The notes under the pieces are model-generated. The model had not been told where the DNA came from, ran no database searches, and worked only from the letters and a program-made list of their open reading frames with translations. Below, piece after piece: positions 6,923 to 20,389 of a stretch of 32,820 bases of DNA. A program made the translations under genes and the position numbers. The stretch's first letter is position 1. Every line of letters starts with the position of its first letter. Source of the stretch: Spirochaetaceae bacterium (GTDB lineage Bacteria > Spirochaetota > Spirochaetia > SZUA-6 > Fen-1364). The DNA lies in contig PMZS01000282.1 of the NCBI GenBank assembly GCA_003170115.1, positions 1 to 32,820 on the forward strand. The letters run 5' to 3'.

Positions 6923-8683
6923 CTGAGACTCAGAAGCATACGCTCGAAGCTGCTTTTCTCCTTCGTCTCGGTGATCCTGCTCCCGCTCCTTACGCTTGGA
7001 ATTCTCGGGCCCTACATCTCGGCGCGAACGATAGAGAGCGAAGCCACAAGCCACACCGTGCAGCTCATCCGCCAGGTGACGCGGAACATCGAGTTCTACG
7101 TGCGCCAGACGGAAAGCATCATCTCCATTGTGGATGCCAACCCCGACGTGCAGGCGTTCATGTCGTTCCAGGGGTCTTCGCAGCCCTTCTCCCCGCGGGC
7201 CCAGGCAGCGGCCCGGCAGCTCCTGAAGTCGATCTCCGACGCGCATCCCGAGATCGCGGGAATCCTCGTGGTGAGCGCGGACAATCGCCCCCTGAGCAAC
7301 GAGATCCAGCCGATCACGCGTGATCCGCTCACCGACGAGAGCTGGTACAGGAAGGCGGTGGACAACCAGGGCACCGTGCAGCTCCTCCCCCGACCCATCG
7401 GCAGGAACCTGCGGAGCAGCCACGAGTACAGCGCCGACGAGGTGGTCTCCATTGTAAAGGCGGTCGTGGACCCCGGCTCGGGGCAGGTCCGGGGCGTCGT
7501 GCTCATCGACATGCGCCTGAAGGTCGTGGAGGCCATCTTCGACGACATGACCATCGGTCTGGGCGGATTCCTCTTCATCGAGGCGCCGGGCGGAGCCATC
7601 GTGTACACGCCCGTGAACCCCATCGTCTACCGCGTGCGCGACGAGTGGCTGGACACCCCGCGCACGAGCAGCGTTCGGCGCATCAAGGGGGAGGACTACC
7701 AGATCGTCTCCCAGGGCTCCGATTACACTCAATGGAAGACAATCGGAGTTTTCCCCCTGAACGAGATCATGAGCCAGGTGAGCACCATCCGCTATTACTC
7801 CCTGATCATTGCCGGAGTCACCGTGCTCGTGGCGCTCATTGTCGCGGTCTTCTTCACGAGCGGTATCGCGCGGCCGGTGATCGAGCTTCGGTCTCTCATG
7901 AAGGAAGCGGAGGAGGGCAACCTCGGGGTCAGGTTCGAGGGTCGGCAGGAGGACGAGATCGGCTATCTCGGCAAGAGCTTTAATACCATGATCGAGGAGG
8001 TCCAGAAGCTCATCGACATGGTCTACCGCGAGCAGCAGAGCAAGCGGGAGGCTGAGCTGAAGACCCTCCAGGAGCAGATCAAGCCCCATTTCCTCTACAA
8101 CACGCTGGACACCATCCAGTGGATGGCGCAGGAGCACGGCGCCCAGGACATCGTGAAAGTCGTCGGCGCGCTCACCAGCCTCTTCCGCATCGGTCTCTCG
8201 CGCGGCAAGGAGATGATCCGCGTGGCCGACGAGATGGAGCACGTCCGCAGCTATCTCATCATCCAGAAAGCGCGCTACGAGGACAAGTTCGACTTCACGC
8301 TCAGCACGGACGACGAGGTCCTCTCCTGCATGGTGTTGAAGCTCACCCTCCAGCCGCTCGTGGAGAACGCGATCTACCATGGCATCAAGGAGCGTCGGGG
8401 CCATGGCTTCGTCCGGGTGGAGGCGCTCCGCCGCGACGGGATGCTCGTCCTTCGCGTGAGCGATGACGGGGTGGGGATGACGCCGGCGAAGCTCGAGGAG
8501 GTGCGTGCCCTCCTCAGCGTCGTCCATCCGCACGGCGCCGGGCTCGAAGGCTACGGGGTTCACAATGTCCACGAGCGGATCCAGCTCTCCTTCGGCACGC
8601 GTTACGGCCTGCGCTTCGAGAGCGCACCGGACCGCGGCACCACCGTGGAGATCCTCCACCCGCTGTTGACCAGCGAGGAGTAG
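6923..8683 (+). CDS. YesM/LytS-family sensor histidine kinase (TM-dCache-TM-HAMP-His_kinase-HATPase)
   Basis: H-box EQIKPHFLYNTL, LQPLVENAIYHG, DDGVGM, GYGVHNVHERI. Start moved from the track's GTG 6971 to in-frame CTG 6923, which has GGAGG 7 nt upstream and restores the RSIRSKLLFSF segment leading into TM1. Confidence 0.92.
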   Translation: MRLRSIRSKLLFSFVSVILLPLLTLGILGPYISARTIESEATSHTVQLIRQVTRNIEFYVRQTESIISIVDANPDVQAFMSFQGSSQPFSPRAQAAARQLLKSISDAHPEIAGILVVSADNRPLSNEIQPITRDPLTDESWYRKAVDNQGTVQLLPRPIGRNLRSSHEYSADEVVSIVKAVVDPGSGQVRGVVLIDMRLKVVEAIFDDMTIGLGGFLFIEAPGGAIVYTPVNPIVYRVRDEWLDTPRTSSVRRIKGEDYQIVSQGSDYTQWKTIGVFPLNEIMSQVSTIRYYSLIIAGVTVLVALIVAVFFTSGIARPVIELRSLMKEAEEGNLGVRFEGRQEDEIGYLGKSFNTMIEEVQKLIDMVYREQQSKREAELKTLQEQIKPHFLYNTLDTIQWMAQEHGAQDIVKVVGALTSLFRIGLSRGKEMIRVADEMEHVRSYLIIQKARYEDKFDFTLSTDDEVLSCMVLKLTLQPLVENAIYHGIKERRGHGFVRVEALRRDGMLVLRVSDDGVGMTPAKLEEVRALLSVVHPHGAGLEGYGVHNVHERIQLSFGTRYGLRFESAPDRGTTVEILHPLLTSEE

Positions 8684-8687
8684 GGCG

Positions 8688-9893
8688 ATGTGGAAGGTCA
8701 TGATCGCTGACGATGAGCCGAAGATCCGCCGCGGGCTGCGCACCACGATCGAGCGCATCCGGCCCGACATGAAGGTGGTGGCGGAGGCCGAGGACGGCGA
8801 GATGGCCCTCGCCCTCGTCCAGAAGGAAACGCCGGACATCCTCCTGATCGACGTCCGCATGCCCTTCCTGAACGGCCTCGAGCTCATAGAGAAGATCAAC
8901 GGGATCCTGAGCGACTGCATCATCATCGTCGTGTCGGGTCATGACGAGTTCGAATACGCGCAGCGTGCCCTGCAGCTGAAGGTGTTCGAATACGTCCTGA
9001 AGCCGGTGCCGCAGGAAGTGCTCGCCAACGTCCTCGCCCGGGCCGAGGAAGCCCTCACCGAATCGCGCCGTCAGCGGCATTACGTTTCGTGGGCGCACGA
9101 GCAGCTGGAACGCAACATGCCCCTGCTCCGCGAGCAGTTCCTTCGCGACTGGGTGCGCGGACGGCTCTCTCCATTGGAGCTCGCCGAGCAGGCGGGGTTC
9201 CTGGGCATGGAAACCTCCGGACATCTCGCGATGGCCGTGATCCACGTGGCCGAGCGCGCGGTGGCCACGGCGCCGTCCGAGGAGCGGGATCGCCGTCTCG
9301 CCCTCTACGCGGTTCGCTCCGCAGTGGATGAGGCATTCGGCGAGTTCACGCCGAGGTGGGTCTTTCTCGACGACCATGACAATATCGTCGTGCTTGCCCG
9401 CTCCTCCGGAGGCCAGGCCTGGGTGGAGGCGGCATCCCGAACGGAGGCGCGCGTGGTCCCCTCGCTCTGCCAGGCGTTGATCGTCGCTCAGGCTGCGGTG
9501 GAGGATGCTCCGCACGGCGTGCCCGAGGCGTACGACGCGCTGAGCGCCGAGATCTCGGGGAAAGGAAGCCATCGAGGCCTCGTGGTCCTTGCCCAGCGCT
9601 ATATCGACGCCCACTACGGGGAGCCGACGCTGTCCCTGGAGGAAGTGGCTTCCTCCGCCCAGATCAGCCCGGGGTACCTCAGCCGGCTCCTGAAACTGGA
9701 GACGGGCTTCTCCTTCGTGGACTACCTGACCCGGGTGAGGATCAACAAGGCGGTGCAGATCATGAATGATCCGTCGGTCAAGGTGTACGAGGTGGCGGAG
9801 GCCGTCGGGTACCAGAGCCAGCATTATTTCAGCCGCGCGTTCAAGCGGGTGTTCGGCCGGCCGCCGGTCGAATACCGCAAGGGCGGCGCATGA
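8688..9893 (+). CDS. YesN-family response regulator (REC + C-terminal AraC HTH)
   Basis: VMIADDE, phospho-acceptor DILLIDVRMP, YVLKP, AraC signature SFVDYLTRVRINKA...VAEAVGYQSQHYFSRAFKR. Confidence 0.95.
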   Translation: MWKVMIADDEPKIRRGLRTTIERIRPDMKVVAEAEDGEMALALVQKETPDILLIDVRMPFLNGLELIEKINGILSDCIIIVVSGHDEFEYAQRALQLKVFEYVLKPVPQEVLANVLARAEEALTESRRQRHYVSWAHEQLERNMPLLREQFLRDWVRGRLSPLELAEQAGFLGMETSGHLAMAVIHVAERAVATAPSEERDRRLALYAVRSAVDEAFGEFTPRWVFLDDHDNIVVLARSSGGQAWVEAASRTEARVVPSLCQALIVAQAAVEDAPHGVPEAYDALSAEISGKGSHRGLVVLAQRYIDAHYGEPTLSLEEVASSAQISPGYLSRLLKLETGFSFVDYLTRVRINKAVQIMNDPSVKVYEVAEAVGYQSQHYFSRAFKRVFGRPPVEYRKGGA

Positions 9894-11746
9894 GAGCTCG
9901 TCTGCCTCGCCTCCTCGTGCTCCCACTCCTCGTTCTGCTCGCGACCTGTCGGCCTTCGGGACACGACGCGACTGCGTTCGACTACGTGATCGGCGTCTCC
10001 ATGGCCAACCTTACCGAGCCCTGGCGCATCAACATGAGGGACGAGATCAATGCGGAGGCTGCGCACCACGCCAACCTCCGCATCGTGTTCACCGACGCGG
10101 CGGACTCGAACAGCCGCCAGATCCAGGACGTGCACACGCTGCTGAGCTCCGGCATCGACCTGCTCATCATCTCCCCGAACGACTCGGAGGCTCTCTCGCC
10201 GGTGATCACGGAGGCCTACCACCGGATCCCCGTCGTCCTCCTGGACCGGTCCGTGATCGGGTTCGACTACACCCTGTTCATCGGCCCCGACAACCGGCTC
10301 ATCGGCAAGCAGGCCGGCGAGTACGTCACGGGGCTCCTGGGAGAGAAGGGCGGGAAGGTCGTCGAGATCATGGGCCGGTCCGGCTCCCCCCCGGTGCTTG
10401 ACAGGAGCGTGGGCTTCCGGGACGCCATTTCGCCCAGCCGGTCCATCACCATCGTGGGCACGATTGTCGCCGATTGGCTGCGCGACAAGGCGGAAGACGA
10501 GCTGAGCGCGTGGCTCAAGAGATACGGGCGCGTCGACGTCATCTTTGCCCAGAACGACGCCATGGCCGAAGGGGCGCGCCGGGCGGCCGAGAAACTGGGG
10601 ATCAACGGCATCCGCGTGGTCGGCATCGACGGGCTGCCTGGACCGGATGGCGGCATTGAGCTGGTGCGAAGCGGAGCCCTCTCCGCGACGTTTACATGCC
10701 CGACGGGCGGCAAAGAGGCGATCATCTATGCAATGGACATCCTCCACCACGAGGAGGGTATCCCGAAGAAAATGATACTTCGGACCTCCCTGGTCACGGA
10801 GAAGACCATCGAGAGCGGCGCCTTGGGCGCCCCCGCGCGGCCGCGCCTTTCCCCCGATCATCGCATCGTGCTGGGTTTCGCCCAGACCGGCGCGGAGAGC
10901 AACTGGCGCCTGGCGAACACGGATTCCATCAAGACCGCGGCGCGGCAGGCCGGGATCGACCTGGTCTTCGTCGACTCGGAAGGGCAGCCGGAGAAGCAGA
11001 TCGCCGCGGTGAGGTCATTCATTGCGCGCAAGGTGGACATCATCTCCTTTTCTCCGATCGTCGAGTCGGGGTGGGAGCCGGTGCTCCGCGAGGCGAAAGC
11101 CGCGGGAATACCCGTGTTCCTGTCCGATCGCACCGTCGACGTGAAGGACGAGTCCCTCTGGACGACCTTCATGGGCTCGGACTTCCTGGAGGAAGGGCGC
11201 CGCGCCGCGAGGTGGCTCATCAACTACATGAAGACCGACGCACCGGTGAACATCGTGGAGCTGCTGGGTACGATTGGCTCGGCGCCGGAGATCGACCGGA
11301 CGCTGGGGTTCAAGGAGATGCTGAAAGAGCATCCCAACTACCGCATCATCGTGTCGGAAAGCGGCAATTTTGAACGAAGTACCGGCAGGGAGGTCATGCA
11401 GCAGATCCTGCAGGAACTTGTGGCAAAGGGTCAGAAAATGGATGCGCTCTTCGCGCACAACGACGACATGGCAATCGGCGCGATCGCGGCCATGGAGGCC
11501 TGGGGAATCAGGCCCGGCAAGGACGTGGCGATCGTGTCGGTCGACGGAATCCGCGATGCGTTCACCGCGATGATTGCCGGAAAGCTCAACTGCTCCGTAG
11601 AGTGCAACCCGCTGCTGGGTCCCCAGCTCATGAAGGCCGTCAAGGACTACATGGCCGGGAAGGACCTGCCCGTGCGCCTCATCACCTCGGAGGGCGTATA
11701 CCCCGCCGCGGTGGCGCGCACCGTGCTGCCGAGCCGCAAGTACTGA
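9890..11746 (+). CDS. Tandem two-domain periplasmic sugar-binding lipoprotein (type I PBP x2; C-terminal domain YtfQ-like)
   Basis: Signal peptide ending LLATC (Cys20). Two complete Peripla_BP-type repeats (IFAQNDAMAEGA; LFAHNDDMAIGA...ECNPLLGPQ). ATGA overlap with the regulator. Confidence 0.9.
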   Translation: MRARLPRLLVLPLLVLLATCRPSGHDATAFDYVIGVSMANLTEPWRINMRDEINAEAAHHANLRIVFTDAADSNSRQIQDVHTLLSSGIDLLIISPNDSEALSPVITEAYHRIPVVLLDRSVIGFDYTLFIGPDNRLIGKQAGEYVTGLLGEKGGKVVEIMGRSGSPPVLDRSVGFRDAISPSRSITIVGTIVADWLRDKAEDELSAWLKRYGRVDVIFAQNDAMAEGARRAAEKLGINGIRVVGIDGLPGPDGGIELVRSGALSATFTCPTGGKEAIIYAMDILHHEEGIPKKMILRTSLVTEKTIESGALGAPARPRLSPDHRIVLGFAQTGAESNWRLANTDSIKTAARQAGIDLVFVDSEGQPEKQIAAVRSFIARKVDIISFSPIVESGWEPVLREAKAAGIPVFLSDRTVDVKDESLWTTFMGSDFLEEGRRAARWLINYMKTDAPVNIVELLGTIGSAPEIDRTLGFKEMLKEHPNYRIIVSESGNFERSTGREVMQQILQELVAKGQKMDALFAHNDDMAIGAIAAMEAWGIRPGKDVAIVSVDGIRDAFTAMIAGKLNCSVECNPLLGPQLMKAVKDYMAGKDLPVRLITSEGVYPAAVARTVLPSRKY

Positions 11747-11748
11747 TC

Positions 11749-11770
11749 GGCGCCCCTCGTACGGGGCGCC
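11749..11770 (+). other. Perfect 8-bp stem-loop immediately after the sensory operon (no U-tract)
   Basis: GGCGCCCC-tcgtac-GGGGCGCC. Confidence 0.6.
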
Positions 11771-11787
11771 ATCCCTGTCTACGCTCG

Positions 11788-11845
11788 AAAAGTGCACAAA
11801 ATAGCTGAATAGTCTAAATACCGCGACCCGAGAGTGTGCTACAAC
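11788..11845 (+). promoter_or_regulatory. Candidate activator-dependent promoter with putative AraC/YesN binding site
   Basis: AT-rich, 10-bp-phased imperfect repeats AAAAGTGCAC/AAAATAGCTG/AATAGTCTAA (11788-11817) run up to the expected -35 position. Extended -10-like TGcTACAAC at 11837-11845; no recognisable -35. Confidence 0.45.
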
Positions 11846-11890
11846 CAGAGGTGGATTCACACTCGTGGAAGTGAACAGAGGAGCACAATC

Positions 11891-12526
11891 ATGCGGCAGA
11901 TCCTTCGCGGGGCGGCGGTACTCCTTCTTCTGATCGCGGTGGCGGGAGTCGGCGCTGCGCAAGCGAAAGCGGGTACCCTGAAGTGCGTGGGGATATACTC
12001 GGAAACCAGCGACGGCTCCATCAGCTACAGGGTCGGCACCGGTGACTGGGTCGTTGTCAAGGTGGGGGACACGATTCCCGCCAACGCCGAGATACGGGTC
12101 AACGTGGACAGGGACTGGATAGAGGTCACGCCGGCCAGCAATTCGAACGCCGTGTACGAAATTCACGGACCCGACTCGGGGGAGATCATCAAGAAAGTCA
12201 CCGACATTCTGAAGGGCAAGCCGAAACTGGTCAGTTTCCCGAAACCAAAGGGGGCGACGCCCGACGCGAAATACAAGGACAAGCTGGTCGTTGTGCAGTA
12301 CCTCGGGAGACAAGTGTACATGACCCCCGATGGGGACGAAAATGACATCCAGTACGGCGATGTGCTGGACATCAAGGGGAAAGTAAGGATCATCGCCATC
12401 AACAACACCATCAATCTCATGAACGCCAGCGGAAAAGTGACCACCGTCATCGGTCCGCTGAATTTCGATGTGGAGAAGGTGCTGACGAATCAGCAGCTTT
12501 ACAAGTACTTGAACGTCCCGAGATGA
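11891..12526 (+). CDS. Hypothetical secreted beta-rich protein (211 aa) with an internal two-fold repeat
   Basis: AGAGGAG RBS before ATG 11891 (preferred over the track's GTG 11834). Sec signal MRQILRGAAVLLLLIAVAGVGAAQA. Coding-like codon pattern. No family recognised with confidence. Confidence 0.8.
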   Translation: MRQILRGAAVLLLLIAVAGVGAAQAKAGTLKCVGIYSETSDGSISYRVGTGDWVVVKVGDTIPANAEIRVNVDRDWIEVTPASNSNAVYEIHGPDSGEIIKKVTDILKGKPKLVSFPKPKGATPDAKYKDKLVVVQYLGRQVYMTPDGDENDIQYGDVLDIKGKVRIIAINNTINLMNASGKVTTVIGPLNFDVEKVLTNQQLYKYLNVPR

Positions 12527-12544
12527 TCGGGGTGAAGGAGGCAA

Positions 12545-12589
12545 ATGCGAAGGAAGAAAGACGTACAAGAGCGCCCGTCGGGTATCTGA
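12545..12589 (+). CDS. Possible 14-aa small ORF / leader peptide MRRKKDVQERPSGI
   Basis: Preceded by TGAAGGAGGC, the same 10-mer that precedes ytfQ, but with only a 3-nt spacer after GGAGG. The stop codon lies within a hairpin. Confidence 0.25.
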   Translation: MRRKKDVQERPSGI

Positions 12590-12688
12590 CGGGATTCGGG
12601 AAATGAGTTCCAAGGGTTTTCTTTATCGGTTCATCCTGATGAAGAAAAGAACCGCACTAGAGGCAAGAGTTCTTTTGAAGGAGGCTTT

Positions 12689-13663
12689 ATGAAGCGCTGG
12701 GGAAAAGTCCTGGCTCTCGTCGCCGTGGCGATGGTGGTGGTCTCGGTGGCCGCAATCGCCGCTCCCAAGACTTGGGTCGTGGGTTTCACGCAGGTCGGGT
12801 CCGAAAGCGAATGGAGAACCGCTGATACCATTTCCGTTCAGGATTCGATCACGAATGATCCCACCCTCGTGATGGTGTATTCCGATGCACAGCAGAAACA
12901 GGAGAACCAGATCAAGGCGATCCGCTCATTCATCCAGCGGAAAGTCAACGTCATTCTTTTCACCGCAATTGTTGAAACCGGGTACGGTACCGTTCTCCAG
13001 GAAGCCCAAAAGGCCCACATTCCAATCGTCATGATTGACAGGCCCGTTGCGAAGGAGGACATGCATTACGTGCTCACCATCATGGGGTCTGATTTCATCA
13101 AGGAAGGCGAAAAGGCAGGAAATTGGCTCGCCAAGTACCTCAAGGACAATGGCATCGATGACGGAAGCACGCCGATCGACATTGCCGAGCTCCAGGGGAC
13201 CACTGGCGCGGCTCCCGCCATTGACAGAGCTCAGGGTTTCCGGAACATCGCGAAAGATCATCCCAACTGGCAGATCAATCACTCTCAGGACGGCGACTTC
13301 ACCTCCTCCCAGGGGAAGCAGGTCATGGAAGCCTTCCTGAAAGCCGACCCGAAAATCCAGGTGCTCTTCGCGCACAATGATCAGATGGCACTCGGCGCCA
13401 TCCAGGCAATCAAGGAAGCCGGCCTCCAGCCCGGCAAGGACATCATCATCATCGGCATGGATGCAGTGAAGGGCATGTTCCAGGCGATAGTCGCCGGTGA
13501 GGCGAACTGCACCATCGAGTGCAACCCACTGCTCGGGCCCCAGGCCGTGCAGGCAATCCATGATCTCAGGGCCGGGAAGAAGCTTCCCGCCCGCATCTGG
13601 ACGATCGAGAGCCAGTTCGACGCGACAAACGCTGCGGCGGCATTACCGACCCGCCAGTACTAA
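12689..13663 (+). CDS. ytfQ: Sugar ABC transporter substrate-binding protein, galactofuranose-binding YtfQ-like
   Basis: VGFTQVGSESEWR, DAQQKQENQIKAIRSFI, GSDFIKEG, ELQGTTGAAPAIDR, IECNPLLGP. Strong AAGGAGG RBS. Non-lipoprotein signal peptide. Confidence 0.88.
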   Translation: MKRWGKVLALVAVAMVVVSVAAIAAPKTWVVGFTQVGSESEWRTADTISVQDSITNDPTLVMVYSDAQQKQENQIKAIRSFIQRKVNVILFTAIVETGYGTVLQEAQKAHIPIVMIDRPVAKEDMHYVLTIMGSDFIKEGEKAGNWLAKYLKDNGIDDGSTPIDIAELQGTTGAAPAIDRAQGFRNIAKDHPNWQINHSQDGDFTSSQGKQVMEAFLKADPKIQVLFAHNDQMALGAIQAIKEAGLQPGKDIIIIGMDAVKGMFQAIVAGEANCTIECNPLLGPQAVQAIHDLRAGKKLPARIWTIESQFDATNAAAALPTRQY

Positions 13664-13691
13664 TCTCGAGAAGTTCTGAACTTTGAATGAT

Positions 13692-13723
13692 GCAGGACCA
13701 CTCGCACTCAGGGGTGGTCCTGC
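13692..13723 (+). other. Strong intercistronic stem-loop after the SBP gene (likely mRNA stabiliser or partial terminator)
   Basis: GCAGGACCAC (13692-13701) / GTGGTCCTGC (13714-13723) form a perfect 10-bp stem, extendable by TTGAA/TTCAA. Confidence 0.7.
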
Positions 13724-13780
13724 CTTCAATCAGGCCTTACGTCACCTCCGCCGCGGTGCTCAGCGGCTTCCGGGCGGGAG

Positions 13781-13808
13781 TTGACGAACCGCAGGGCTTG
13801 CTTATCAT
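13781..13808 (+). promoter_or_regulatory. Possible internal sigma70 promoter upstream of the ABC ATPase
   Basis: TTGACG, 16-nt spacer, TATCAT. Confidence 0.4.
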
Positions 13809-13852
13809 GTGTCGCAAGAAGCCGCGGGGTACCGCAGCGAGGAGGCGTGGGA

Positions 13853-15379
13853 ATGCCCGAAGAAATGCCCGTCCTGTCGATGAAAAGGATCACCAAGGTA
13901 TTTCCGGGCGTGAAAGCCCTTTCCGCGGTGGATTTTCGCCTTTTCAAAGGAGAGGTTCACGCCATCATGGGCCAGAACGGCGCCGGAAAATCGACGCTGA
14001 TCAAAGTGCTCACCGGTGTGCACGAGCAGGATTCCGGCGAGATACTGCTGGAAGGCAAACCGATCCGCCCGGATTCCCCCCTCGCCGCACAGAAGCTGGG
14101 AATCAGCACCGTGTACCAGGAAATCAACCTCTGCCCGAACCTGTCGGTCGCGGAAAACATCTTTGCCGGCCGGCAGCCCACGCGTTTCGGAGGCATCGAC
14201 TGGAAAGAGATGACCCGGAGGTCGGAAGAGCTCCTGAAGCGGCTGAACCTCGTCATCGACGTCACCCAGATCCTCTCGTCGTACTCCATCGCAATTCAAC
14301 AGCTTGTGGCAATCGCCCGGGTCCTGGATATTTCCTCCAAGATCCTGATCCTCGATGAGCCGACTTCCAGTCTCGATGAGACCGAAGTGGAACAATTGTT
14401 CAAGGTCATCAGGTTTTTGCGTGATGAGGGACTGGCCATCATCTTCATCACTCATTTCCTGGACCAGACCTACCAGATTTCGGACCGGATCACGGTCCTG
14501 AAAAACGGGGAGTTCGTCGGGGAGTTCAGGACCGAAATGCTCCCGAAACTGGATCTGATCGCCAAGATGCTCGGCAAGGAATTGTCCGAGTTCAGCTATG
14601 CCGCGGATAACGATCAAAGAAAAAGGGCGTTCGCAATTGCCGGCAAAGATGCAAAAAACGTGCTCAATGTGAAGGACCTCGGACTGCGCGGTTCCATCGC
14701 GCCCTTTGACCTGAATCTGAACGAAGGCGAGGTCCTCGGATTGGCCGGACTCCTGGGTTCCGGCAGGACGGAAATGGCGCGGCTCATTTTCGGCATCGAC
14801 GGCGCCAACCAGGGTGAAATCCAGGTCAAGGGAAAGAAGGCGGCCATCAACTCCCCCAGGAGCGCAATGATGGCCGGGATGGGATTCTGCTCGGAGGACA
14901 GGAAGAGCGAGGGTGTTTTCGCAGACCTGACCGTCCGGGAAAACATTATCCTGGCCCTGCAGGCCAGGAACGGAGTGTTCAAATACATCACGACGAGAAA
15001 GCAGCTGGAGATCGCCGATGAAATGATCAAGTCTCTGGCAATCATGACCCCGAGCGCAAACAACCGGGCCAGCCAGCTCAGCGGAGGCAACCAGCAGAAG
15101 GTGATGCTGGCGCGATGGCTTGCCACCAGTCCGATCATCCTGATCCTGGATGAGCCCACGCGCGGCATCGATGTCGGAGCAAAGCTGGAGATCATGGAGC
15201 TGATCCTGAACCTGAGCAGGCAGGGGATGGGCGTCATGTTCATTTCCTCCGAGTTTGAAGAGGTGGTCCGATGCAGCAGCCGGATCGCCGTCCTGAAAGA
15301 CAAGGCAAAGATCGCGGAATTGAACGGAGAGGACATGAACGAGAGCAGCATCATGCGGACGATCGCGGGAGGGAACTAG
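13853..15379 (+). CDS. ytfR: Sugar ABC transporter ATP-binding protein (CUT2, two fused NBDs), YtfR-like
   Basis: GQNGAGKSTL, ILDEPTSSL, GLLGSGRTE, LSGGNQQKV, LDEPTRGIDVGAK. GGAGG 7 nt before ATG 13853. Confidence 0.92.
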   Translation: MPEEMPVLSMKRITKVFPGVKALSAVDFRLFKGEVHAIMGQNGAGKSTLIKVLTGVHEQDSGEILLEGKPIRPDSPLAAQKLGISTVYQEINLCPNLSVAENIFAGRQPTRFGGIDWKEMTRRSEELLKRLNLVIDVTQILSSYSIAIQQLVAIARVLDISSKILILDEPTSSLDETEVEQLFKVIRFLRDEGLAIIFITHFLDQTYQISDRITVLKNGEFVGEFRTEMLPKLDLIAKMLGKELSEFSYAADNDQRKRAFAIAGKDAKNVLNVKDLGLRGSIAPFDLNLNEGEVLGLAGLLGSGRTEMARLIFGIDGANQGEIQVKGKKAAINSPRSAMMAGMGFCSEDRKSEGVFADLTVRENIILALQARNGVFKYITTRKQLEIADEMIKSLAIMTPSANNRASQLSGGNQQKVMLARWLATSPIILILDEPTRGIDVGAKLEIMELILNLSRQGMGVMFISSEFEEVVRCSSRIAVLKDKAKIAELNGEDMNESSIMRTIAGGN

Positions 15380-15380
15380 C

Positions 15381-16403
15381 GTGACATCCTGGAGATCCCT
15401 GAGTCGCACCAAGATCGTGTGGCCCCTCATTGCCCTGGGGGCTCTCCTGCTCTTGAACCTGTTCTTCACGCCTCACTTTTTCCGCCTGGAGATCAAGCAA
15501 GGGCACCTGTACGGCAACCTGATCGATATTCTGAAGAATGTCGCCCCGATCATGCTGCTGTCCATCGGCATGACGCTGGTCATCGCGACGCACGGAATCG
15601 ATATTTCCGTCGGTTCCGTCGTGGCGGTATCTGCCGGTGCCGTCGCGATTCTCATAGGGGGTGACCTCGCCGGGCACCCGAAGTACCCCATCGCCGTGGC
15701 GATGATCGCGGCGTTGCTGGTGTGCACCGCCGCGGGCATGTGGAACGGGATGCTGGTATCACGGGTCCGCATGCAGCCCATCATCGCGACACTGATCCTT
15801 TTCGTCGCGGGCCGCGGCATCGCGATGGTGTTCACGAATGCAATGGTCATCTGGCTCTACGCAAAACCGTTTGCGATCCTGGGCCAGGGATATGTGCTGG
15901 GCATCCCCTTCTCGATCTACATAGTGGCATTCGTGCTCCTCTTGACTTTCATTTTCACCAGAAGGACCGCGGTCGGGATGTTCATCGAGGCGGTGGGTAT
16001 CAACCCGACGGCGGCCCGGTTCTCCGGAATCAACGCAAAGAATATCCTCTTCTGGGTCTACACGTTCAGCGGGCTTTGCGCGGGTATTTCCGGGCTGATC
16101 GTGTGTTCCACCGTCATGAGCGCGGACGGGAACAACGCGGGGAACCTGTACGAGCTGGACGCCATCCTGGCCGTCGTGCTGGGCGGCACCTCTCTGAACG
16201 GCGGCAAGTTTTACCTGTTCGGGAGCATCGTCGGCGCCTTGATCATCCAGACCCTCACCACGAGCATCTACGCGATCGGCATTCCGGCCGACGTTTCCCC
16301 GGTCGTAAAGGCGTTTGTCGTGTGGGCCGTCTGCCTGATGCAGTCCGAGAGGTTCAGGACCAGGATCGTACGGGTGTTCGTCAGAAAGGGGTTGTCGGCA
16401 TGA
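15381..16403 (+). CDS. ytfT: Sugar ABC transporter permease, YtfT-like
   Basis: GHLYGNLIDIL, GIDISVGS, QPIIATLILFVAGRGIA, ADGNNAG, ELDAILAVVLGGTSL; multiple TM segments. Confidence 0.88.
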   Translation: MTSWRSLSRTKIVWPLIALGALLLLNLFFTPHFFRLEIKQGHLYGNLIDILKNVAPIMLLSIGMTLVIATHGIDISVGSVVAVSAGAVAILIGGDLAGHPKYPIAVAMIAALLVCTAAGMWNGMLVSRVRMQPIIATLILFVAGRGIAMVFTNAMVIWLYAKPFAILGQGYVLGIPFSIYIVAFVLLLTFIFTRRTAVGMFIEAVGINPTAARFSGINAKNILFWVYTFSGLCAGISGLIVCSTVMSADGNNAGNLYELDAILAVVLGGTSLNGGKFYLFGSIVGALIIQTLTTSIYAIGIPADVSPVVKAFVVWAVCLMQSERFRTRIVRVFVRKGLSA

Positions 16404-17422
16404 GCAGGAAACTCTTCGCCAGCTCCCGAAACCTTCCCATCCTGGTCACCCTCGGATTGTTCATCGTCATGTTCGGATTGGGCTCCATCGCATTCCCCGG
16501 GTTCTTTTCGATTCAAAACTTTCTCAACCTTTTCATCGACAACTCGTATCTCCTGATCCTTGCCGTGGGGATGACGTTTGTGATCATATCGGGAGGCATC
16601 GACCTGTCCGTTGGATCCATGCTCGCCCTGTCCGGGATGGTCTCTGCGAGCCTGCTGGAAAAGGCTCACATGAGCCCCCTGTTCGTGATACCGATCGTGC
16701 TCCTCATGGGAACGGCGCTGGGTCTTTTCATGGGGTACCTGATCCAGGCCTTCGACCTTCCGCCATTCATCATTACCCTTGCCGGGCTGTACCTGGCGCG
16801 AGGCCTGTGTTACGTCGTCAGCCTCTTTACCATCTCGGTCAAAAACAATTTTTTCCAGGCCGCGGCGCATGCGCAAGTCAATATCATCGGCACCAATTTT
16901 CTTTCACCGGGAGCGTTGATCGCGATCGGAGTGGTCCTGATTGGGTTTTTTGTCTCGCGCTATACGAAGTTCGGCAGGACCGTCTACGCGATCGGGGGCA
17001 GCGAGCAGTCCGCCCTGCTGATGGGACTTCCGGTCGCACGCACCAAGATCGCCACCTATGCCTTGAGCGGCTTCTGCTCTGCGTTGGGCGGGATTGTGTT
17101 CACATTCTATACGCTCTCCGGGTACGGGTTGAACGGAAAAGGCATGGAGCTGGACACGATCGCGGCGGTCGTCATTGGCGGAACCCTGCTGACCGGGGGC
17201 GTGGGGAACCTCTTCGGGACGCTCCTCGGCGTGCTGGTCTATGGGATCATCCAGGTGCTGATCGTCTTCCAGGGCACACTCAACTCCTGGTGGACCAGGA
17301 TCGTGATCGGGTTCCTGGTGTTCGTCTTCTGCGTTCTGCAGAGGCTGTTCGAGGCGAGAAAGGGCGCAACGTTGGGACGGAACACTGCCCGCGAGCCCGC
17401 GAAAGCCGCGGCGGGACGTTAG
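16400..17422 (+). CDS. yjfF: Sugar ABC transporter permease, YjfF-like
   Basis: ATG 16400 overlaps the ytfT stop (ATGA). FVIISGGIDLSVGS, FGRTVYAIGGSEQSALLMGLPV, ELDTIAAVVIGGTLLTGG, GTLNSWWTRI. Confidence 0.9.
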   Translation: MSRKLFASSRNLPILVTLGLFIVMFGLGSIAFPGFFSIQNFLNLFIDNSYLLILAVGMTFVIISGGIDLSVGSMLALSGMVSASLLEKAHMSPLFVIPIVLLMGTALGLFMGYLIQAFDLPPFIITLAGLYLARGLCYVVSLFTISVKNNFFQAAAHAQVNIIGTNFLSPGALIAIGVVLIGFFVSRYTKFGRTVYAIGGSEQSALLMGLPVARTKIATYALSGFCSALGGIVFTFYTLSGYGLNGKGMELDTIAAVVIGGTLLTGGVGNLFGTLLGVLVYGIIQVLIVFQGTLNSWWTRIVIGFLVFVFCVLQRLFEARKGATLGRNTAREPAKAAAGR

Positions 17423-17440: not shown

Positions 17441-18301
17441 CTACAGCTCGACGTCGATCCAGCCCCTGCGGGTGAGCTGGCGCTGGGCACGGTAGCCCGC
17501 GCCGCGCAGGAGCTGGACTGCCTCCGGGAACTTTCCGTCGATCTGCTCGGGACGATGCGCGTCAGCGTTCACCATTACGGGGATGTCCATGCGGCACGCT
17601 TCCCGCAGGATCCAGGGTGACGGGTAGAACGACCCGCTTGTGCCGCGCACCACGCCGCCCGTGTTGATCTCCATCACGCATCCAGATTCCCGCACCGAGT
17701 CCAGCGCGAGCTTTACTGCGGCGCGGTACCATGCGTCGTCCTCGCTGAAGAACTGCCCGTCGCGGTTGTTCTTCTTCACCACGTCGAAATGGGCCACGAT
17801 GTCAGGGGCGGCCGTTTCCGCCATCGAGGCAAGCAGCCGGTAGTAGCGCTCGACCAGTCCCCGCGCGTCCCCGCCAAACCCGTGTTGGACGGCGTCCTCC
17901 ATTTCCTCGAGGGGACCGTCCACGGTCCAGGCGTGGTCGCCATCGGAAGGACCGATGAAGTGCACCGAACCGATGACGAAATCCAGCCCCAGCCCTCTGA
18001 TGTCTCGGTGCACGGGCGAGATCATGCCCGGGATGAAATCCGCCTCAATTCCAAGAAAGACCTCGAGGCGCCCTCGGTAGCGCTCCTTCACTTCCCTGAC
18101 CTCGTGAAGGTAGCTTTCCAGACGTGTGGCGGGCATTGTCCAGTCGGTGGGAAAGGGCACGACGTTGTGCCCGGAAAATCCCAGCCGGGGCATACCCTTC
18201 TTCAGAGCTGCCTCGGCGTACTCTCGCGGCTCCCCGTGGCCGTCGCAGTGATACGTGTGCGTGTGATAGTTGCCGATGCCGGGTTTCATGCCTTCCGCCA
18301 T
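17441..18301 (-). CDS. PHP-family phosphatase, histidinol-phosphatase HisK/HisJ-like
   Basis: NYHTHTYHCDG, GFSGH, IGSVH, AHFDVVKK, MEINTGG and NADAH metal ligands. Start uncertain (ATG at 18307, 18301 or 18289). Confidence 0.85.
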   Translation of the reverse strand: MAEGMKPGIGNYHTHTYHCDGHGEPREYAEAALKKGMPRLGFSGHNVVPFPTDWTMPATRLESYLHEVREVKERYRGRLEVFLGIEADFIPGMISPVHRDIRGLGLDFVIGSVHFIGPSDGDHAWTVDGPLEEMEDAVQHGFGGDARGLVERYYRLLASMAETAAPDIVAHFDVVKKNNRDGQFFSEDDAWYRAAVKLALDSVRESGCVMEINTGGVVRGTSGSFYPSPWILREACRMDIPVMVNADAHRPEQIDGKFPEAVQLLRGAGYRAQRQLTRRGWIDVEL

Positions 18302-18334
18302 GGGCATGAAGATACTCTCTCCCGCCGCCCCGGG

Positions 18335-19621
18335 CTACAGGTCGAGCATCACCGCGCCCGCCGTACGGATGGAGAGGGCATGGCAGGAGGCCGGGCCGAA
18401 CACCACCCGCATGCCGGAGAGGTACTCCGCCAGCATCGTCGCGGGAACGAACGCGAGGATCGTCCCGGCGAAACCGCCGCCGTGCACCCTCCACGCCCCG
18501 TTCTCCCCGAGGAGGATTTCACTCAGGGCAAGGGCGATGGGAACGCCCTGCTGGTCGACGGACTTTGTCGAGTAGCAGTTCTGGAGGAGGGTCCATGAGC
18601 TGCGGCCGCTCTCATTGACGAGCCCGAGGAAATCCGCAAACCTGCCCTCTTCCAGCGCCTGGACCTGCCGGTCCACGCGTATGTCGTCGGCGTAGAAATG
18701 CAGGGCCCGGAGGATCGCGCGATCGCTTACCTTTCCGCGCAGAAGGGGCAGCGCGGCCAGGACGCGCTGCCGGGAGACGTCCCGCAGGACGCTTCCTCCG
18801 AAGTATCCCGACACGTCTTTCATTTCCTGCTTCACCGCGGCGTACTCGTCGGTGAGATCGGCATGGCTGCCTCCCGTATCGACAATGACCGGCACGTACC
18901 CGCTTCCACTGAAGTCCGAGCGTACGGCCCTCACCCGGGGATGGGAAAAATCCTGAAAGTCGATGGTCACGAACCCGCCCAGCGCGCAGGTGGTCTGGTC
19001 CATGAGCCCGCATGGCTTGCCGAAGTATTCGTTTTCCGAAAACTGGGCGATGAGCGCAATCTCGACGCCGCCGATCCCGCCTCCGTTGGCGAAGTGGTTG
19101 AGGATCGTCGCAACGAGCACCTCGTACGAAGCCGACGAGCTGAGGCCCGAGCCTTTCAGGACGTCACTGGTCACGCATGCGCAGAATCCTCCGACCGAGT
19201 GACCGGTGTCCCGCGTCCTGGCCGCCACGCCCCTCGTGAGAGCCGCCGCGGTGCCGAGCTCCGAAACCTTGCGCGCCAGGTCGTCGATGCGGATCTGATG
19301 GCGCGGGTATCCTTCGCTTTCGATTGTGATGCGGCCATCCGAGGTCGGCGCGGCGACGGCGATTGCATCCAGATCCACCGCCGCGGCGAGCACCCGGCCG
19401 CCATTGTGATCGGTGTGGTTGCCGCAGATCTCCGTACGGCCGGGCGTGCTGAAAAGGCGGGTACCCTCCACGTGTGGGAAGGAATCCTCGAATCGTTCAA
19501 GAAGCCCTCGATACCGGGCTTTCTGTCGATCAGCCGCTCCCGGCCTTGCCCCGTACAATGATTCGAGCACTTCCGCTGCTTTCCCGCCTTCAAGCGAATT
19601 CCCCAGCGTTCCGGCATTCAT
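18335..19621 (-). CDS. galK: Galactokinase-family GHMP kinase
   Basis: PGRTEICGNHTDH, GSGLSSSAS ATP loop, GKPCGLMDQ, RVHGGGFAG. Start set at ATG 19621; the track's longer ORF runs antisense to the neighbouring gene. Confidence 0.82.
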   Translation of the reverse strand: MNAGTLGNSLEGGKAAEVLESLYGARPGAADRQKARYRGLLERFEDSFPHVEGTRLFSTPGRTEICGNHTDHNGGRVLAAAVDLDAIAVAAPTSDGRITIESEGYPRHQIRIDDLARKVSELGTAAALTRGVAARTRDTGHSVGGFCACVTSDVLKGSGLSSSASYEVLVATILNHFANGGGIGGVEIALIAQFSENEYFGKPCGLMDQTTCALGGFVTIDFQDFSHPRVRAVRSDFSGSGYVPVIVDTGGSHADLTDEYAAVKQEMKDVSGYFGGSVLRDVSRQRVLAALPLLRGKVSDRAILRALHFYADDIRVDRQVQALEEGRFADFLGLVNESGRSSWTLLQNCYSTKSVDQQGVPIALALSEILLGENGAWRVHGGGFAGTILAFVPATMLAEYLSGMRVVFGPASCHALSIRTAGAVMLDL

Positions 19622-19774
19622 GGACGAAGTGAAACACGCCGGCGGGCACAGGGTCCACCCTCCCGGGGCTGCAATCCCGCGGCGGGGGCCTGGCTGGATG
19701 TGGCCGTCGGGGGTTTCCGGCCGTACCTTATCTTCATGGCCGCGTCCCCAGGGGATGCGGAAAGGAGGTATCGC

Positions 19775-20389
19775 ATGAGCATGAGTCGTGGGAAGGGCCG
19801 TGCGGCCCTTCTGATTTCGATCATACTTCTTCTCGGAGCGGCTGCCATGGGCGGATTCGCGCAGGCAGCGGCCACTTCCCCGGTGAGCGGCACAATCGTG
19901 TCGATCAACGGGACAAATGTCATGCTCGCCCTTGCCGACAAGACGCAGAAGACCGTCGCGCTCCAGGCGAGCACCCTCGTCCTCGAGCGGGACGCGGCGG
20001 AATTGAATCAGATCCAGACCGGCGACGCGTTGGCCGTGACGTCGCGCCGATCCGGAATGGATCTGATTGCGACCAACATCAACATCTTTTCCAGGGAGAT
20101 GTGGAACGTGGTGCGCAAGGGCCAATGGCCGATGGCCACCGGAGAGATGATGACCAACGCGATGGTGAGCGAGTATGCGCAGGGCATGAGCGGGCACACG
20201 CTTACCATGAAGTACGCCGACGGAACATCCACTATCACGGTGCCGGACGGGATCCCGATCCACCGCCTTGTGAGCATGCGGCCTGCTGATCTCACGGCGG
20301 GCATGCAGATCGTGGTGCGCGGCACCGCCGGTTCGGACGGCATCCTGAAAGCGGCGTCCATCAGCTTCGACGGACCCGCGAAGAGCTAG
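19775..20389 (+). CDS. Exported protein with two OB-fold-like (DUF5666-like) repeats
   Basis: AGGAGGT RBS and signal peptide. Two similar repeats (GTIVSINGTNVML...IQTGDALAV...LIATNINI; GHTLTMKY...LTAGMQIVVRG...LKAASISF). Confidence 0.75.
   Translation: MSMSRGKGRAALLISIILLLGAAAMGGFAQAAATSPVSGTIVSINGTNVMLALADKTQKTVALQASTLVLERDAAELNQIQTGDALAVTSRRSGMDLIATNINIFSREMWNVVRKGQWPMATGEMMTNAMVSEYAQGMSGHTLTMKYADGTSTITVPDGIPIHRLVSMRPADLTAGMQIVVRGTAGSDGILKAASISFDGPAKS

Follow-up and report, generated by a model that had tools for sequence, protein, structure and literature searches.

A proposed three-component sugar sensor with a two-module binding lipoprotein beside a CUT2-type importer in a Spirochaetaceae bacterium

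Results

Genes and features of the locus

The window, by which we mean the whole analysed stretch of 32,820 nucleotides from a Spirochaetaceae bacterium (contig PMZS01000282.1, assembly GCA_003170115.1), contains genes for a histidine kinase, a response regulator and a two-module lipoprotein, followed by a hairpin, an operator-like block, a gene for a secreted 211-aa protein and the four genes of an importer, all in the same orientation (Table 1). All parts were found on the + strand where an earlier note on this DNA had placed them, and its guess of a spirochaete as probable host fits the closest loci, which come from Spirochaetia, Spirochaetaceae and Rectinemataceae genomes with protein identities of up to 91%.

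Table 1. Positions of the features in the window and the evidence for each
Feature	Position	Strand	Evidence
Sensor histidine kinase, YesM/LytS type	6923..8683	+	Pfam, translation
Response regulator, YesN type	8688..9893	+	Pfam; 4-nt gap after kinase gene
Two-module binding lipoprotein, 618 aa, proposed kinase co-receptor	9890..11746	+	Pfam, lipobox, AF2
N-module, RbsB/BT1754-like binding domain	9977..10840	+	Solved-structure matches, complex model, tree
C-module, GafA/YtfQ-like furanose-type binding domain	10841..11746	+	Solved-structure matches, tree
G+C-rich hairpin after the sensor operon	11745..11773	+	Fold energy; 8 G-C pairs, without a U tract
Operator-like block CGAAAAGTGCACAAAATAGCTGAATAGTCTAAATAC, 36 nt	11786..11821	+	Alignment, genome pattern search, weight matrix
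Extended -10-like element TG-C-TACAAC	11837..11845	+	Intergenic alignment, partly conserved
Secreted 211-aa protein, first gene of the importer operon	11891..12526	+	Start context, signal peptide, AF2
Soluble binding protein of the importer, YtfQ/GafA-like	12689..13663	+	Pfam, NCBIfam
ABC ATPase, YtfR-like, two ABC_tran domains	13781..15379	+	Pfam, NCBIfam (686 bits, cut-off 850)
Permease, YtfT-like (BPD_transp_2)	15381..16403	+	NCBIfam (304.3 bits, cut-off 535)
Permease, YjfF-like (BPD_transp_2)	16400..17422	+	NCBIfam (434.9 bits, cut-off 363)

The kinase has the domain order TM1, periplasmic dCache_1 (about residues 34-290), TM2, HAMP, His_kinase and HATPase_c, with Pfam matches to dCache_1 (4.5e-21, at 19-259), HAMP, PF06580 (6e-26) and HATPase_c (3.1e-12). 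As in the kinase of a three-component sensor, the TM segments visible in the translation flank the extracytoplasmic domain, which is present as a single copy in the genome. The gene probably starts at CTG 6923, because residues S5 and R7, encoded upstream of the first in-frame ATG/GTG/TTG codon (GTG 6971), are nearly invariant among 27 kinase homologues and because a GGAGG lies 7 nt 5' of the CTG, as it also does in L001, L002, L007 and L013. The regulator consists of a REC domain, a GGDEF-like middle domain and an AraC-type HTH, with Pfam matches (Response_reg, 1.4e-26; GGDEF_2; HTH_18, 1.4e-21; HTH_AraC, 2.4e-16) that assign it to the YesN type. The tight coupling previously described for the three sensor genes is confirmed: the kinase stop codon (TAG 8681-8683) is 4 nt away from the ATG of the regulator gene (8688), whose stop overlaps the lipoprotein start as ATGA (9890-9893).

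The lipoprotein is indeed two-headed, with two Peripla_BP_4 stretches (Pfam, 3.4e-85) arranged as the N-module (about residues 30-305), a linker (about 306-326) and the C-module (about 327-618), and its AF2 model has a pLDDT of 88.3 and a pTM of 0.83. Its signal peptide ends with LLATC (lipobox, Cys20), whereas that of the importer's own binding protein is plain and lacks a lipobox cysteine. Being coupled with the regulator gene and distinct from the importer's protein, the lipoprotein is a dedicated binding protein of the sort that characterizes three-component sensors. The best solved match of the N-module is 2x7x, annotated as 'sensor protein' (7.6e-59), which we take to be the sensor domain of BT1754, and RbsB follows at about 1e-29. 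Judged by the positions that we take to contact ribose in RbsB, whose aligned residues are kept in the N-module, a ribose-type pocket appears to be retained, so this module is more than a mere adaptor.

The C-module matches 6hyh, 6hbd and 6hb0 at 2.7e-96, over module residues 4-301 and therefore over its full length, as well as 5ocp (4.9e-77) and 2vk2 (3.2e-73), and the 6hbd residues Glu28, Trp31-Arg32 and Asp105-Arg106 have identical counterparts in the alignment. Scored against the NCBIfam model of YtfQ (NF041827), the fused lipoprotein reaches 388 bits over two stretches and stays below the cut-off of 510. As the closest solved relatives bind L-arabinofuranose, D-galactofuranose and L-fucofuranose, the galactofuranose-type ligand previously suggested is among the candidates, but it is just one of several. 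With regard to the importer, all four genes are present and their best-scoring NCBIfam models are YtfQ, YtfR, YtfT and YjfF; the complete ytfQ-ytfR-ytfT-yjfF importer of the earlier note stands to this extent, although only YjfF reaches its curated cut-off, the binding protein scoring 306.5 bits against the 510 of NF041827. ATG 13853 is more likely to be the start of the ATPase gene than 13781.

An operator-like block precedes the importer operon

The hairpin reported after the lipoprotein gene was recovered with a fold energy of -21 kcal/mol (z -3.35), which 1 of 200 shuffled sequences equals, and it could possibly be a terminator or an RNA end. Without a U tract, it does not appear in the output of the terminator scan, and the alignment of intergenic regions shows no conservation of its sequence. 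The promoter-like region that had been described next is borne out more strongly than the note could show: the 36-nt block, made of two similar half-sites (AGTGCACAAAATA and AGTC-TAAATA), is conserved across 18 aligned intergenic regions. A sigma-70 consensus scan gave no promoter at 11786-11845. A search of the 4.08-Mb genome gave a single match to the corresponding pattern and 0 to the backwards control, and a weight matrix applied to 42 loci not used to build it (732 kb) gave 30 matches of at least 25 bits against 0 for the reversed matrix. Moreover, 26 of the 32 matches of at least 20 bits are situated in front of a CUT2 importer operon, 5' of its first gene; among them are those of five Paenibacillus loci, some 52 nt 5' of the ATPase gene. 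The block precedes the importer operon irrespective of the side on which this operon lies. We propose that the AraC-type regulator binds to this block and that the block overlaps the -35 region; the extended -10-like element may belong to the promoter of the importer operon.

The secreted protein travels with the importer

The gene of the secreted protein most likely starts at ATG 11891 and not at GTG 11834, since an AGAGGAG lies upstream of the former and the encoded signal peptide ends with AQA|KA. That this secreted protein has no recognisable family agrees with the previous description, as it had no match in Pfam, NCBIfam or PDB sequences, and its relatives form 48 clusters among 1.84 billion representatives. 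The AF2 model (pLDDT 85.3) has two beta-rich domains, and residues 128-200 resemble a 'cell surface anchoring domain' (5ix9; Z 9.1, rmsd 2.4, 72 aligned residues; Z 4.3 for the next row). The gene is present as a single copy in the genome.

The earlier note had allowed for this protein as an extra, fourth component of the sensor. It might, for instance, modulate the receptor-kinase complex, an idea that its periplasmic or secreted nature and the place of its gene right behind the sensor genes in 23 loci would favour. We nevertheless regard it as highly improbable, and no link to the sensor was found. The gene is located downstream of the operator-like block and travels with the importer, beside which it stays despite a 2.5-kb insertion in L018, while in L022 another copy stands at the head of a second importer of a different sort. 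Furthermore, its presence coincides with a single clade (18 rows, support 100) of importer binding proteins, and it is absent from L047 and from the loci classed B, C and D, the exception being L017 (class B), in which it is frameshifted, which means that the sensor module exists without it. The best reading is that the secreted protein belongs to the regulated importer operon and not to the sensor.

The sensor genes are conserved as a unit

The gene-neighbourhood survey proposed in the earlier note covered 59 related loci fetched with the fused receptor and bore the arrangement out: the fused N+C protein is encoded directly 3' of the regulator gene in 47 of them, from two phyla and including Spirochaetota and cultured Paenibacillaceae, and the kinase gene lies 5' of the regulator gene wherever the contig extends that far. 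Next comes the secreted protein in 23 of these 47 loci and a transporter binding protein in 13; in 7 loci, from Paenibacillaceae, the importer is found 5' of the kinase gene, and 4 are cut by the contig end. The importer is downstream in Spirochaetota and upstream in Paenibacillaceae while the order of the sensor genes is constant, and in L052 the sensor is present with no importer within 10 kb. Another 8 loci (Bacillota, Synergistota) combine a kinase, a regulator and a single N-type binding protein with an importer that has its own N-type binding protein. The window's own family has one copy in 20 of 25 genomes, and in 7 of the 7 high-quality ones. At the level of sequence, the sensor module is conserved across phyla.

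A FastTree tree of 141 binding-protein modules (10 of the initial 151 were left out as shorter than 260 aa), in which support values are SH-like only, grouped the sensor N-modules in one clade (55 rows, support 97) and the sensor C-modules in another (43 rows, support 100), both separate from the binding proteins of transporters. The fused sensors form a group of their own (support 91), and the single-module ones diverge below it. According to this tree, each sensor module is of single origin, apart from the transporter binding proteins. In L019, L025, L029 and L030 the C-module shares no more than about 30% identity with the binding protein of the importer next to it, so the sensor protein is not in all loci a paralogue of the importer's binding protein.

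A complex model places the N-module on the kinase

We predicted the complex of receptor residues 28-618 with kinase residues 34-290 (1:1) in three runs, with 3 controls. The runs scored 0.78, 0.80 and 0.78 against 0.00 for the best control, a mark that 116 of 157 solved complexes attain, as do 2 of 215 mismatched pairs; the runs share at least 98% of their contacts, with partner pLDDT values of at least 83. The earlier note had suggested modelling the dCache domain with each of the binding modules, and the outcome differed between them: all confident receptor contacts are within the N-module (predicted docking face, residues 28-89 and 197-199), and the C-module is left free and without a role. 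On the kinase side, 27 residues are contacted, of which R133, G160, R161, Y236 and R237 are invariant across 27 homologues and V231, N232 and V235 nearly so. The contacted stretches fall within the motifs RDPLT, RPIGRN and VYxPxNxxVYR, which, in a 19-row alignment, are retained by all kinases adjoining N-type sensor proteins, fused or single, from three phyla, and are missing from the single paralogous YesM-type kinase found in L044 and L045. The model thus predicts that the lipoprotein docks on the periplasmic domain of the kinase through its N-module. Complexes of binding proteins with tandem-PAS kinases, such as LuxP-LuxQ, have been solved (excerpt of PMC8050422), and fold likeness to them could account for part of the score; no solved complex with a sequence relative of the kinase sensor domain was found among the 13 matches of the kinase to solved structures.

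One might also consider that the lipoprotein serves transport only, giving the importer an additional, double binding protein and with it a wider substrate range, while the kinase senses directly through its dCache domain. Source annotations do name it an ABC-type sugar transport substrate-binding protein, and direct binding of small ligands is common for dCache domains (excerpt of PMC8050422), so that the dCache domain of this kinase might have a ligand of its own. We find this explanation very unlikely: the lipoprotein gene shows translational coupling with the regulator gene, is parted from the importer by the hairpin and the operator-like block, and stays with the kinase and regulator genes when the importer changes side. 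In addition, the complex model holds against controls that score 0.00, and its contacts on the kinase fall in motifs that occur together with N-type sensor proteins.

A dual use, in which the lipoprotein signals to the kinase and also delivers sugar to the YtfT/YjfF-like permeases (for instance, the N-module serving the kinase and the C-module the permeases), is unlikely in our opinion, despite several points that speak for it. The C-module is closely related to genuine transporter binding proteins, including the importer's own (44% identity), it is free in the complex model and in most loci its conservation exceeds that of the N-module (82% against 68% in L015, for instance). Besides, ChvE, GltB and a chitin-oligosaccharide binding protein take part in both signalling and transport. 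A review lists binding proteins that have the two roles (table in PMC8050422, in excerpt). On the other hand, every complete locus already has the importer's own binding protein, the clade of the sensor C-modules includes no transporter binding protein, and there are four loci in which the importer next to the sensor is only a distant relative (permease identities of 34-37%) yet the C-module is still 62-75% identical.

Discussion

We favour, with a probability of about 60%, a three-component sugar sensor of the XylFII-LytS-YesN or CuaDSR kind, equipped with a two-module co-receptor, that switches on a CUT2-type importer. The membrane-anchored lipoprotein would be a dedicated co-receptor of the kinase, its RbsB/BT1754-like N-module docking sideways on the periplasmic dCache domain and its GafA/YtfQ-like C-module adding another sugar pocket, one of the furanose-binding type. 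Occupancy by sugar would alter the receptor-kinase complex, the kinase would phosphorylate the YesN-type REC-AraC regulator, and the regulator, bound to the operator-like block, would activate the operon for the secreted protein and the YtfQ-like, YtfR-like, YtfT-like and YjfF-like proteins. The earlier proposal of a sensor that depends on a binding protein and is wired to the adjacent importer is supported by the gene order, the separate origin of the modules, the complex model and the operator-like block. The logic of having two pockets finds no explanation in this reading.

Several systems are comparable. The XylFII-LytS-YesN sensor of Clostridium beijerinckii controls an adjacent sugar ABC importer. 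In Geobacillus stearothermophilus, AraP-AraS-AraT, composed of a sugar-binding lipoprotein, a kinase and a regulator, senses arabinose and induces an ABC importer, AraP being a single-module binding protein as opposed to the two-module receptor described here. XylFII-LytS and other pairs of binding protein and kinase are a precedent for the present system, which shares with XylFII-LytS-YesN a Peripla_BP_4 protein dedicated to signalling, a PF06580-type kinase and a REC-AraC regulator (PDB 5XSJ; excerpt of PMC8050422). The analogy drawn by the earlier note appears sound as regards the kind of sensor, but the sensor domain of C. beijerinckii LytS is a TarH-like four-helix bundle (table in PMC8050422, in excerpt) whereas it is dCache_1 here, and XylFII has a single module. 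The sensor domain and the two-module binding protein rule out membership in XylFII-LytS-YesN proper, and 5XSJ was absent both from the receptor's 60 best matches to solved structures and from the kinase's 13.

CuaD-CuaS-CuaR of Ruminiclostridium cellulolyticum is at least as close an analogue. There too a lipoprotein binding protein, distinct from that of the importer, is encoded beside a two-TM HAMP kinase and a YesN/AraC regulator. CuaD-CuaS-CuaR induces the operon of the ABC importer next to it, and CuaD binds the kinase and raises sensitivity, although CuaSR senses cellobiose even without CuaD (excerpt of PMC10384115). In the same excerpt, CuaD is a single-module protein of 410 aa specific for cellobiose, in contrast to the two CUT2-type monosaccharide modules of our receptor, and the extracytoplasmic part of CuaS has no predicted domain, as opposed to dCache_1. 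The name order of CuaD-CuaS-CuaR also differs from the order kinase, regulator and binding protein seen here.

As to the single modules, BT1754 is a fructose-sensing hybrid two-component system of Bacteroides thetaiotaomicron (excerpt of PMC3404733). As the closest solved relative of the N-module, it uses a binding-protein fold for signalling and not for transport, and it has an AraC-type output. A hybrid sensor of this type is ruled out, since the binding domain of BT1754 lies within the kinase polypeptide whereas the N-module is part of a separate, fused lipoprotein and the kinase has a dCache domain of its own. Like the importer's binding protein, the C-module aligns over the entire length with GafA/YtfQ (PDB 2VK2, 5OCP, 6HBD/6HBM/6HYH); both keep its Glu, Trp-Arg and Asp-Arg at positions that can be checked, and the importer has the same four-gene make-up as YtfQRT-YjfF (GafABCD; excerpt of PMC10191376). 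The C-module differs from GafA/YtfQ in being fused behind another binding module and in belonging to the sensor clade. With its fused two-module co-receptor, the sensor would be a new version of a known kind of sugar-sensing system in bacteria.

Organization of the gene cluster

We put at roughly six in ten the probability that the cluster encodes a three-component, binding-protein-dependent sensor in which a lipid-anchored receptor (a 618-aa binding protein made of an N-module and a C-module) would dock on a dCache histidine kinase through its N-module, the C-module would offer a second, furanose-type pocket and the regulator would switch on the importer operon from a conserved operator-like block. 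The window is one entire contig of a 4.08-Mb, 92%-complete genome, and the eight genes lying between positions 6923 and 17422 are all co-oriented (see the table). The tight coupling of the first three genes proposed in the earlier note was borne out, as the kinase and regulator genes are separated by 4 nt and the regulator and receptor genes overlap as ATGA. The hairpin that it placed after the receptor gene is also present; it has no U tract and was not flagged by the terminator scan. The note had further named a ytfQ-ytfR-ytfT-yjfF importer, and four such genes do exist, but only the YjfF-like permease reaches its NCBIfam equivalog cut-off, so that YtfQRT-YjfF-like is the fair name.

Features of the cluster and its surroundings in the window
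Feature	Position	Strand	Domains or properties
Histidine kinase, YesM/LytS-type	6923/6971-8683	+	dCache_1, HAMP, His_kinase (PF06580), HATPase_c
Regulator, YesN-type	8688-9893	+	REC, GGDEF-like, AraC HTH
Receptor (binding protein, 618 aa)	9890-11746	+	Two Peripla_BP_4 modules, lipobox LLATC
Hairpin	11745-11773		-21 kcal/mol, z -3.35
Operator-like block	11786-11821		
Secreted protein, 211 aa	11891-12526	+	No family match
Spacer, 162 nt	12527-12688		Structure not unusual, z -1.0
Importer binding protein, YtfQ-like	12689-13663	+	
Importer ATPase, YtfR-like	13781/13853-15379	+	
Importer permease, YtfT-like	15381-16403	+	
Importer permease, YjfF-like	16400-17422	+	
PHP-domain protein and GHMP kinase (642 aa)	17441-20263	-	Convergent to the importer
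ORF, 249 aa	23163-23912	+	No Pfam match
ORF, 239 aa	31806-32525	-	No Pfam match

The kinase most likely starts at the CTG at 6923, which has a GGAGG 7 nt before it; CTG and GGAGG also occur in four related loci (L001, L002, L007 and L013), and 27 homologues show almost no variation in the residues that precede the first GTG codon (6971). The window has no Rfam match at the gathering score and contains no glycoside hydrolase gene. The neighbouring genes gave no clue to the substrate, the upstream ones being housekeeping (trigger factor, ClpP, ClpX, Lon and an aminotransferase), and the downstream PHP-domain and GHMP/galactokinase-like genes are both retained only in L001 and L027. The GHMP kinase bears a galactokinase signature at residues 256-430 and its N-terminal ~250 residues have no assignment. 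Relatives of the 249-aa ORF adjoin an aconitase gene in L005, L006, L008 and L014 (46-51% identity).

The fused receptor in related loci

Fused proteins of this kind are abundant. A homologue search gave 929 at E <= 1e-10, the best 120 of which range from 538 to 629 aa in length and from 68 to 98% in identity. One genome per species was scanned, and the 59 loci obtained were surveyed by tblastn with the window proteins. In this neighbourhood survey, of a kind that the earlier note had suggested, a fused protein directly follows the regulator gene in 47 of them. It is followed by a 211-aa-type protein and the same importer in 23 loci (Spirochaetota), directly by an importer binding protein in 13 and by the contig end in four; the other seven (six plus L047) have the Paenibacillaceae order ATPase-permease-permease-binding protein-kinase-regulator-fused protein. 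L017, counted among the 13, really has the order with the 211-aa-type gene, which is frameshifted there. Eight loci from Bacillota and Synergistota carry a kinase, a regulator and a single N-type binding protein together with an importer that has its own N-type binding protein, and the last four are truncated within the N-module (L011), broken or rearranged (L022 and L027) or a fragment (L059). Within the window's own family, the system occurs as one copy in 20 of 25 genomes and in all seven high-quality ones, and both the N-module type and the kinase sensor domain are single in the window's genome.

Two survey results count against the three-component reading: the neighbouring importer is only distantly related in four loci, and one locus has no importer nearby. 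In L019, L025, L029 and L030, a conserved sensor and operator precede an importer whose binding protein is distant (clade branch length 1.84, ~30% identity to the C-module), and one sensor type may thus control unrelated CUT2 importers. Several cluster genes are in pieces and in different frames in four metagenome-assembled genomes (L017, L024, L027 and L033); because every gene is affected alike, these frameshifts look like assembly or sequencing errors rather than decay.

Receptor modules and predicted docking

The two modules share 26% identity. Residues from about 30 to 305 make up the N-module, which is RbsB-like; its best solved relative is the 'sensor protein' 2x7x (7.6e-59), which we take to be the periplasmic part of BT1754, a fructose sensor of Bacteroides. 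The sensor domain of BT1754 is described as binding monomeric fructose (PMC3404733). The C-module (about residues 327-618) matches the furanose-binding GafA/YtfQ proteins (6hyh/6hbd/6hb0, 2.7e-96; 5ocp, 4.9e-77; 2vk2, 3.2e-73). These proteins are reported to bind L-fucofuranose, D-galactofuranose and L-arabinofuranose (6hbm), galactofuranose being the ligand given for E. coli YtfQ (PMC10191376). The AF2 model of the whole receptor is confident, with a pLDDT of 88.3 and a pTM of 0.83, the linker being less so. Across 27 homologues there is little or no variation at the GafA-site Glu, Trp-Arg and Asp-Arg positions of the C-module, or at the N-module positions aligned to what are presumably the sugar contacts of RbsB, so both pockets look functional. 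The idea of the N-module as a degenerate adaptor was rejected on the conservation of these presumed contacts. That both pockets look live while the logic of having two is unexplained counts against the three-component reading. The importer's own binding protein is 44% identical to the C-module. A receptor that signals to the kinase and also feeds the importer seems improbable to us.

The complex was predicted with the mature receptor (residues 28-618) and the periplasmic domain of the kinase (34-290) and scored 0.78, 0.80 and 0.78, the best of three controls giving 0.00. Among solved complexes, 116 of 157 attain this mark, as do 2 of 215 mismatched pairs; these counts are approximate, as custom alignments were used here. 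The runs agreed in at least 98% of their contacts, with a pLDDT of at least 83 for the partner. Fold-level likeness to LuxP-LuxQ could have helped this score, and no solved complex with sequence likeness to the kinase sensor domain was found. The model supports binding of the receptor to the kinase and falls short of a demonstration. Of the two heads that the earlier note would have examined on the dCache domain, the N-module docks in the model (residues 28-89 and 197-199) and the C-module makes no confident contact; a 1:1 model that gives this module no role counts against the three-component reading.

On the kinase side, the 27 contact residues fall at 131-133, 157-172, 226-239 and 252-255; R133, G160, R161, Y236 and R237 among them are invariant, and V231, N232 and V235 nearly so, in 27 homologues. 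The contacts touch three motifs, RDPLT, RPIGRN and VYxPxNxxVYR, which in a 19-row alignment are kept in all kinases encoded beside an N-type sensor protein, fused or single, across Spirochaetota, Bacillota and Synergistota; a paralogous YesM-type kinase of L044 and L045, effectively one paralogue as control, does not have them. The database names of the receptor homologues, where given, are mostly ABC sugar-transport binding protein, and the R. cellulolyticum CuaSR pair, described as perceiving its sugar without CuaD (PMC10384115), was counted against the three-component reading. A receptor serving transport only, beside a kinase that senses directly, is in our opinion very unlikely.

A tentative elaboration, to which we give rather less than even odds as a whole, is a two-input co-receptor. 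Its N-module would be permanently docked, and ligand-driven closure of the furanose-type module would be passed on via the N-module or would act on the other protomer of the dimeric kinase. One kinase would so respond to two sugars, or to one sugar in two ring forms, with AND/OR logic, and the design would have arisen once, when a GafA-type module joined an older single-module sensor, and spread between Spirochaetota and Bacillota.

Origin of the fusion

In a FastTree phylogeny of 141 modules (10 of 151 fell short of 260 aa and were left out; all support given is of the SH-like kind only), all 55 sensor N-modules form one group (support 97), sister to N-type transporter binding proteins, and all 43 sensor C-modules likewise fall together (support 100), among transporter binding proteins of the GafA/YtfQ-like type. 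The fused sensors group with a support of 91, and the single-module sensors diverge below them. If the root is placed on the transporter side, the topology is consistent with a single addition of a GafA-type module behind an older single-module sensor.

The operator-like block

The block, CGAAAAGTGCACAAAATAGCTGAATAGTCTAAATAC, lies in the spacer that follows the receptor gene, has two similar half-sites and is conserved in 18 aligned regions, with a partly conserved TG-N-TACAAC 3' of it. Its degenerate pattern has one match in its own genome and none when read backwards, and a weight matrix from the 18 sequences gave 30 matches of at least 25 bits in 42 other loci (732 kb), against none for the reversed matrix. 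At 20 bits or more, 26 of 32 matches precede the leading gene of a CUT2 importer operon, among them the one in front of a second, different importer in L022; in five Paenibacillus loci the block lies ~52 nt before the ATPase gene, the importer being on the other side of the sensor. Of the remaining six, those in L010 and L052 precede the kinase gene, that of L011 precedes a gene of no assigned identity, that of L035 is at a contig end, and the others are extra copies in an insertion (L018). The block would overlap a -35 position, which matches the expectation for an AraC-type activator, and we infer that the regulator binds it. A sigma-70 consensus scan did not find a promoter at the block region.

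In the window there is no block copy before the kinase gene. Block-like copies 81 and 139 nt before that gene in L010 (position 6838, 41 bits) and L052 (position 6714, 20 bits), respectively, hint at autoregulation in these two loci. The 2.5-kb insertion of L018 (11866-14430), between the receptor gene and the 211-aa-type gene, contains copies at ~11968 and ~13001, which suggests that this locus has additional regulon members. In L022 (6927-12610), a block (58 bits) and a second 211-aa-type gene stand, on the opposite strand, at the head of another, different CUT2 importer, whose binding protein shares 31% identity with the C-module.

The secreted 211-aa protein

This protein has a cleavable signal peptide, is 59-84% identical in an 18-sequence alignment and is represented by only 48 clusters among 1.84 billion representatives, mainly in Spirochaetota according to the Atlas. 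It has no Pfam, NCBIfam or PDB sequence match, and a Foldseek search of the PDB had no match at E <= 0.001. In its AF2 model, which is confident (pLDDT 85.3), VIA-align matched residues 128-200 to the 76-residue 'cell surface anchoring domain' 5ix9 (Z 9.1, rmsd 2.4, 72 aligned; next row Z 4.3), and the N-terminal domain gave weak matches (Z <= 4.3) to beta-gamma-crystallin- or CBM-like rows. A FecR identity was rejected, as the Atlas lead of 0.79 is at chance level and the FecR domains of two distant matches (P0163 and P0171) sit outside the aligned stretch.

The earlier note had counted this protein as a possible fourth component of the sensor, and its gene does lie within the cluster. Nevertheless, the gene is downstream of the operator, and in L018 and L022 it stays beside the importer. 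Its occurrence goes with a single clade of importer binding proteins (18 rows, support 100), and it is absent wherever the importer belongs to another clade. We regard the sensor role as most unlikely and take the protein to be a periplasmic accessory of the importer operon that is specific to its lineage.

Significance of the system

Binding-protein-dependent kinases are a kind of system that is already known. AraPST of Geobacillus is reportedly one of them. CuaD-CuaS-CuaR (PMC10384115) and XylFII-LytS-YesN with other binding-protein/kinase pairs (PMC8050422) are described cases. In the open-access papers searched, we found no description of a kinase co-receptor built as a fusion of two binding modules. 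What is new is a co-receptor made of two different monosaccharide-binding modules, together with its probable single origin and broad distribution, a predicted split of roles in which the N-module docks on a defined dCache patch, a common operator-like block and an extra secreted protein in the operon.

Few binding-protein-assisted kinases have been worked out, and the signal path from occupancy to the dCache kinase is still treated as an open question in PMC8050422. This receptor family represents a natural dissection, with one chain that combines a docking module and a further ligand module, and also offers single-module relatives, a defined kinase patch and a defined operator. As cultured Paenibacillus strains have the system, every step is testable. 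The finding would be less important if both modules just bind one same sugar with no interplay. Hundreds of proteins labelled 'ABC-type sugar transport substrate-binding protein' are probably sensors, and furanose-type sugars are pointed to as signals for peat and soil spirochaetes.
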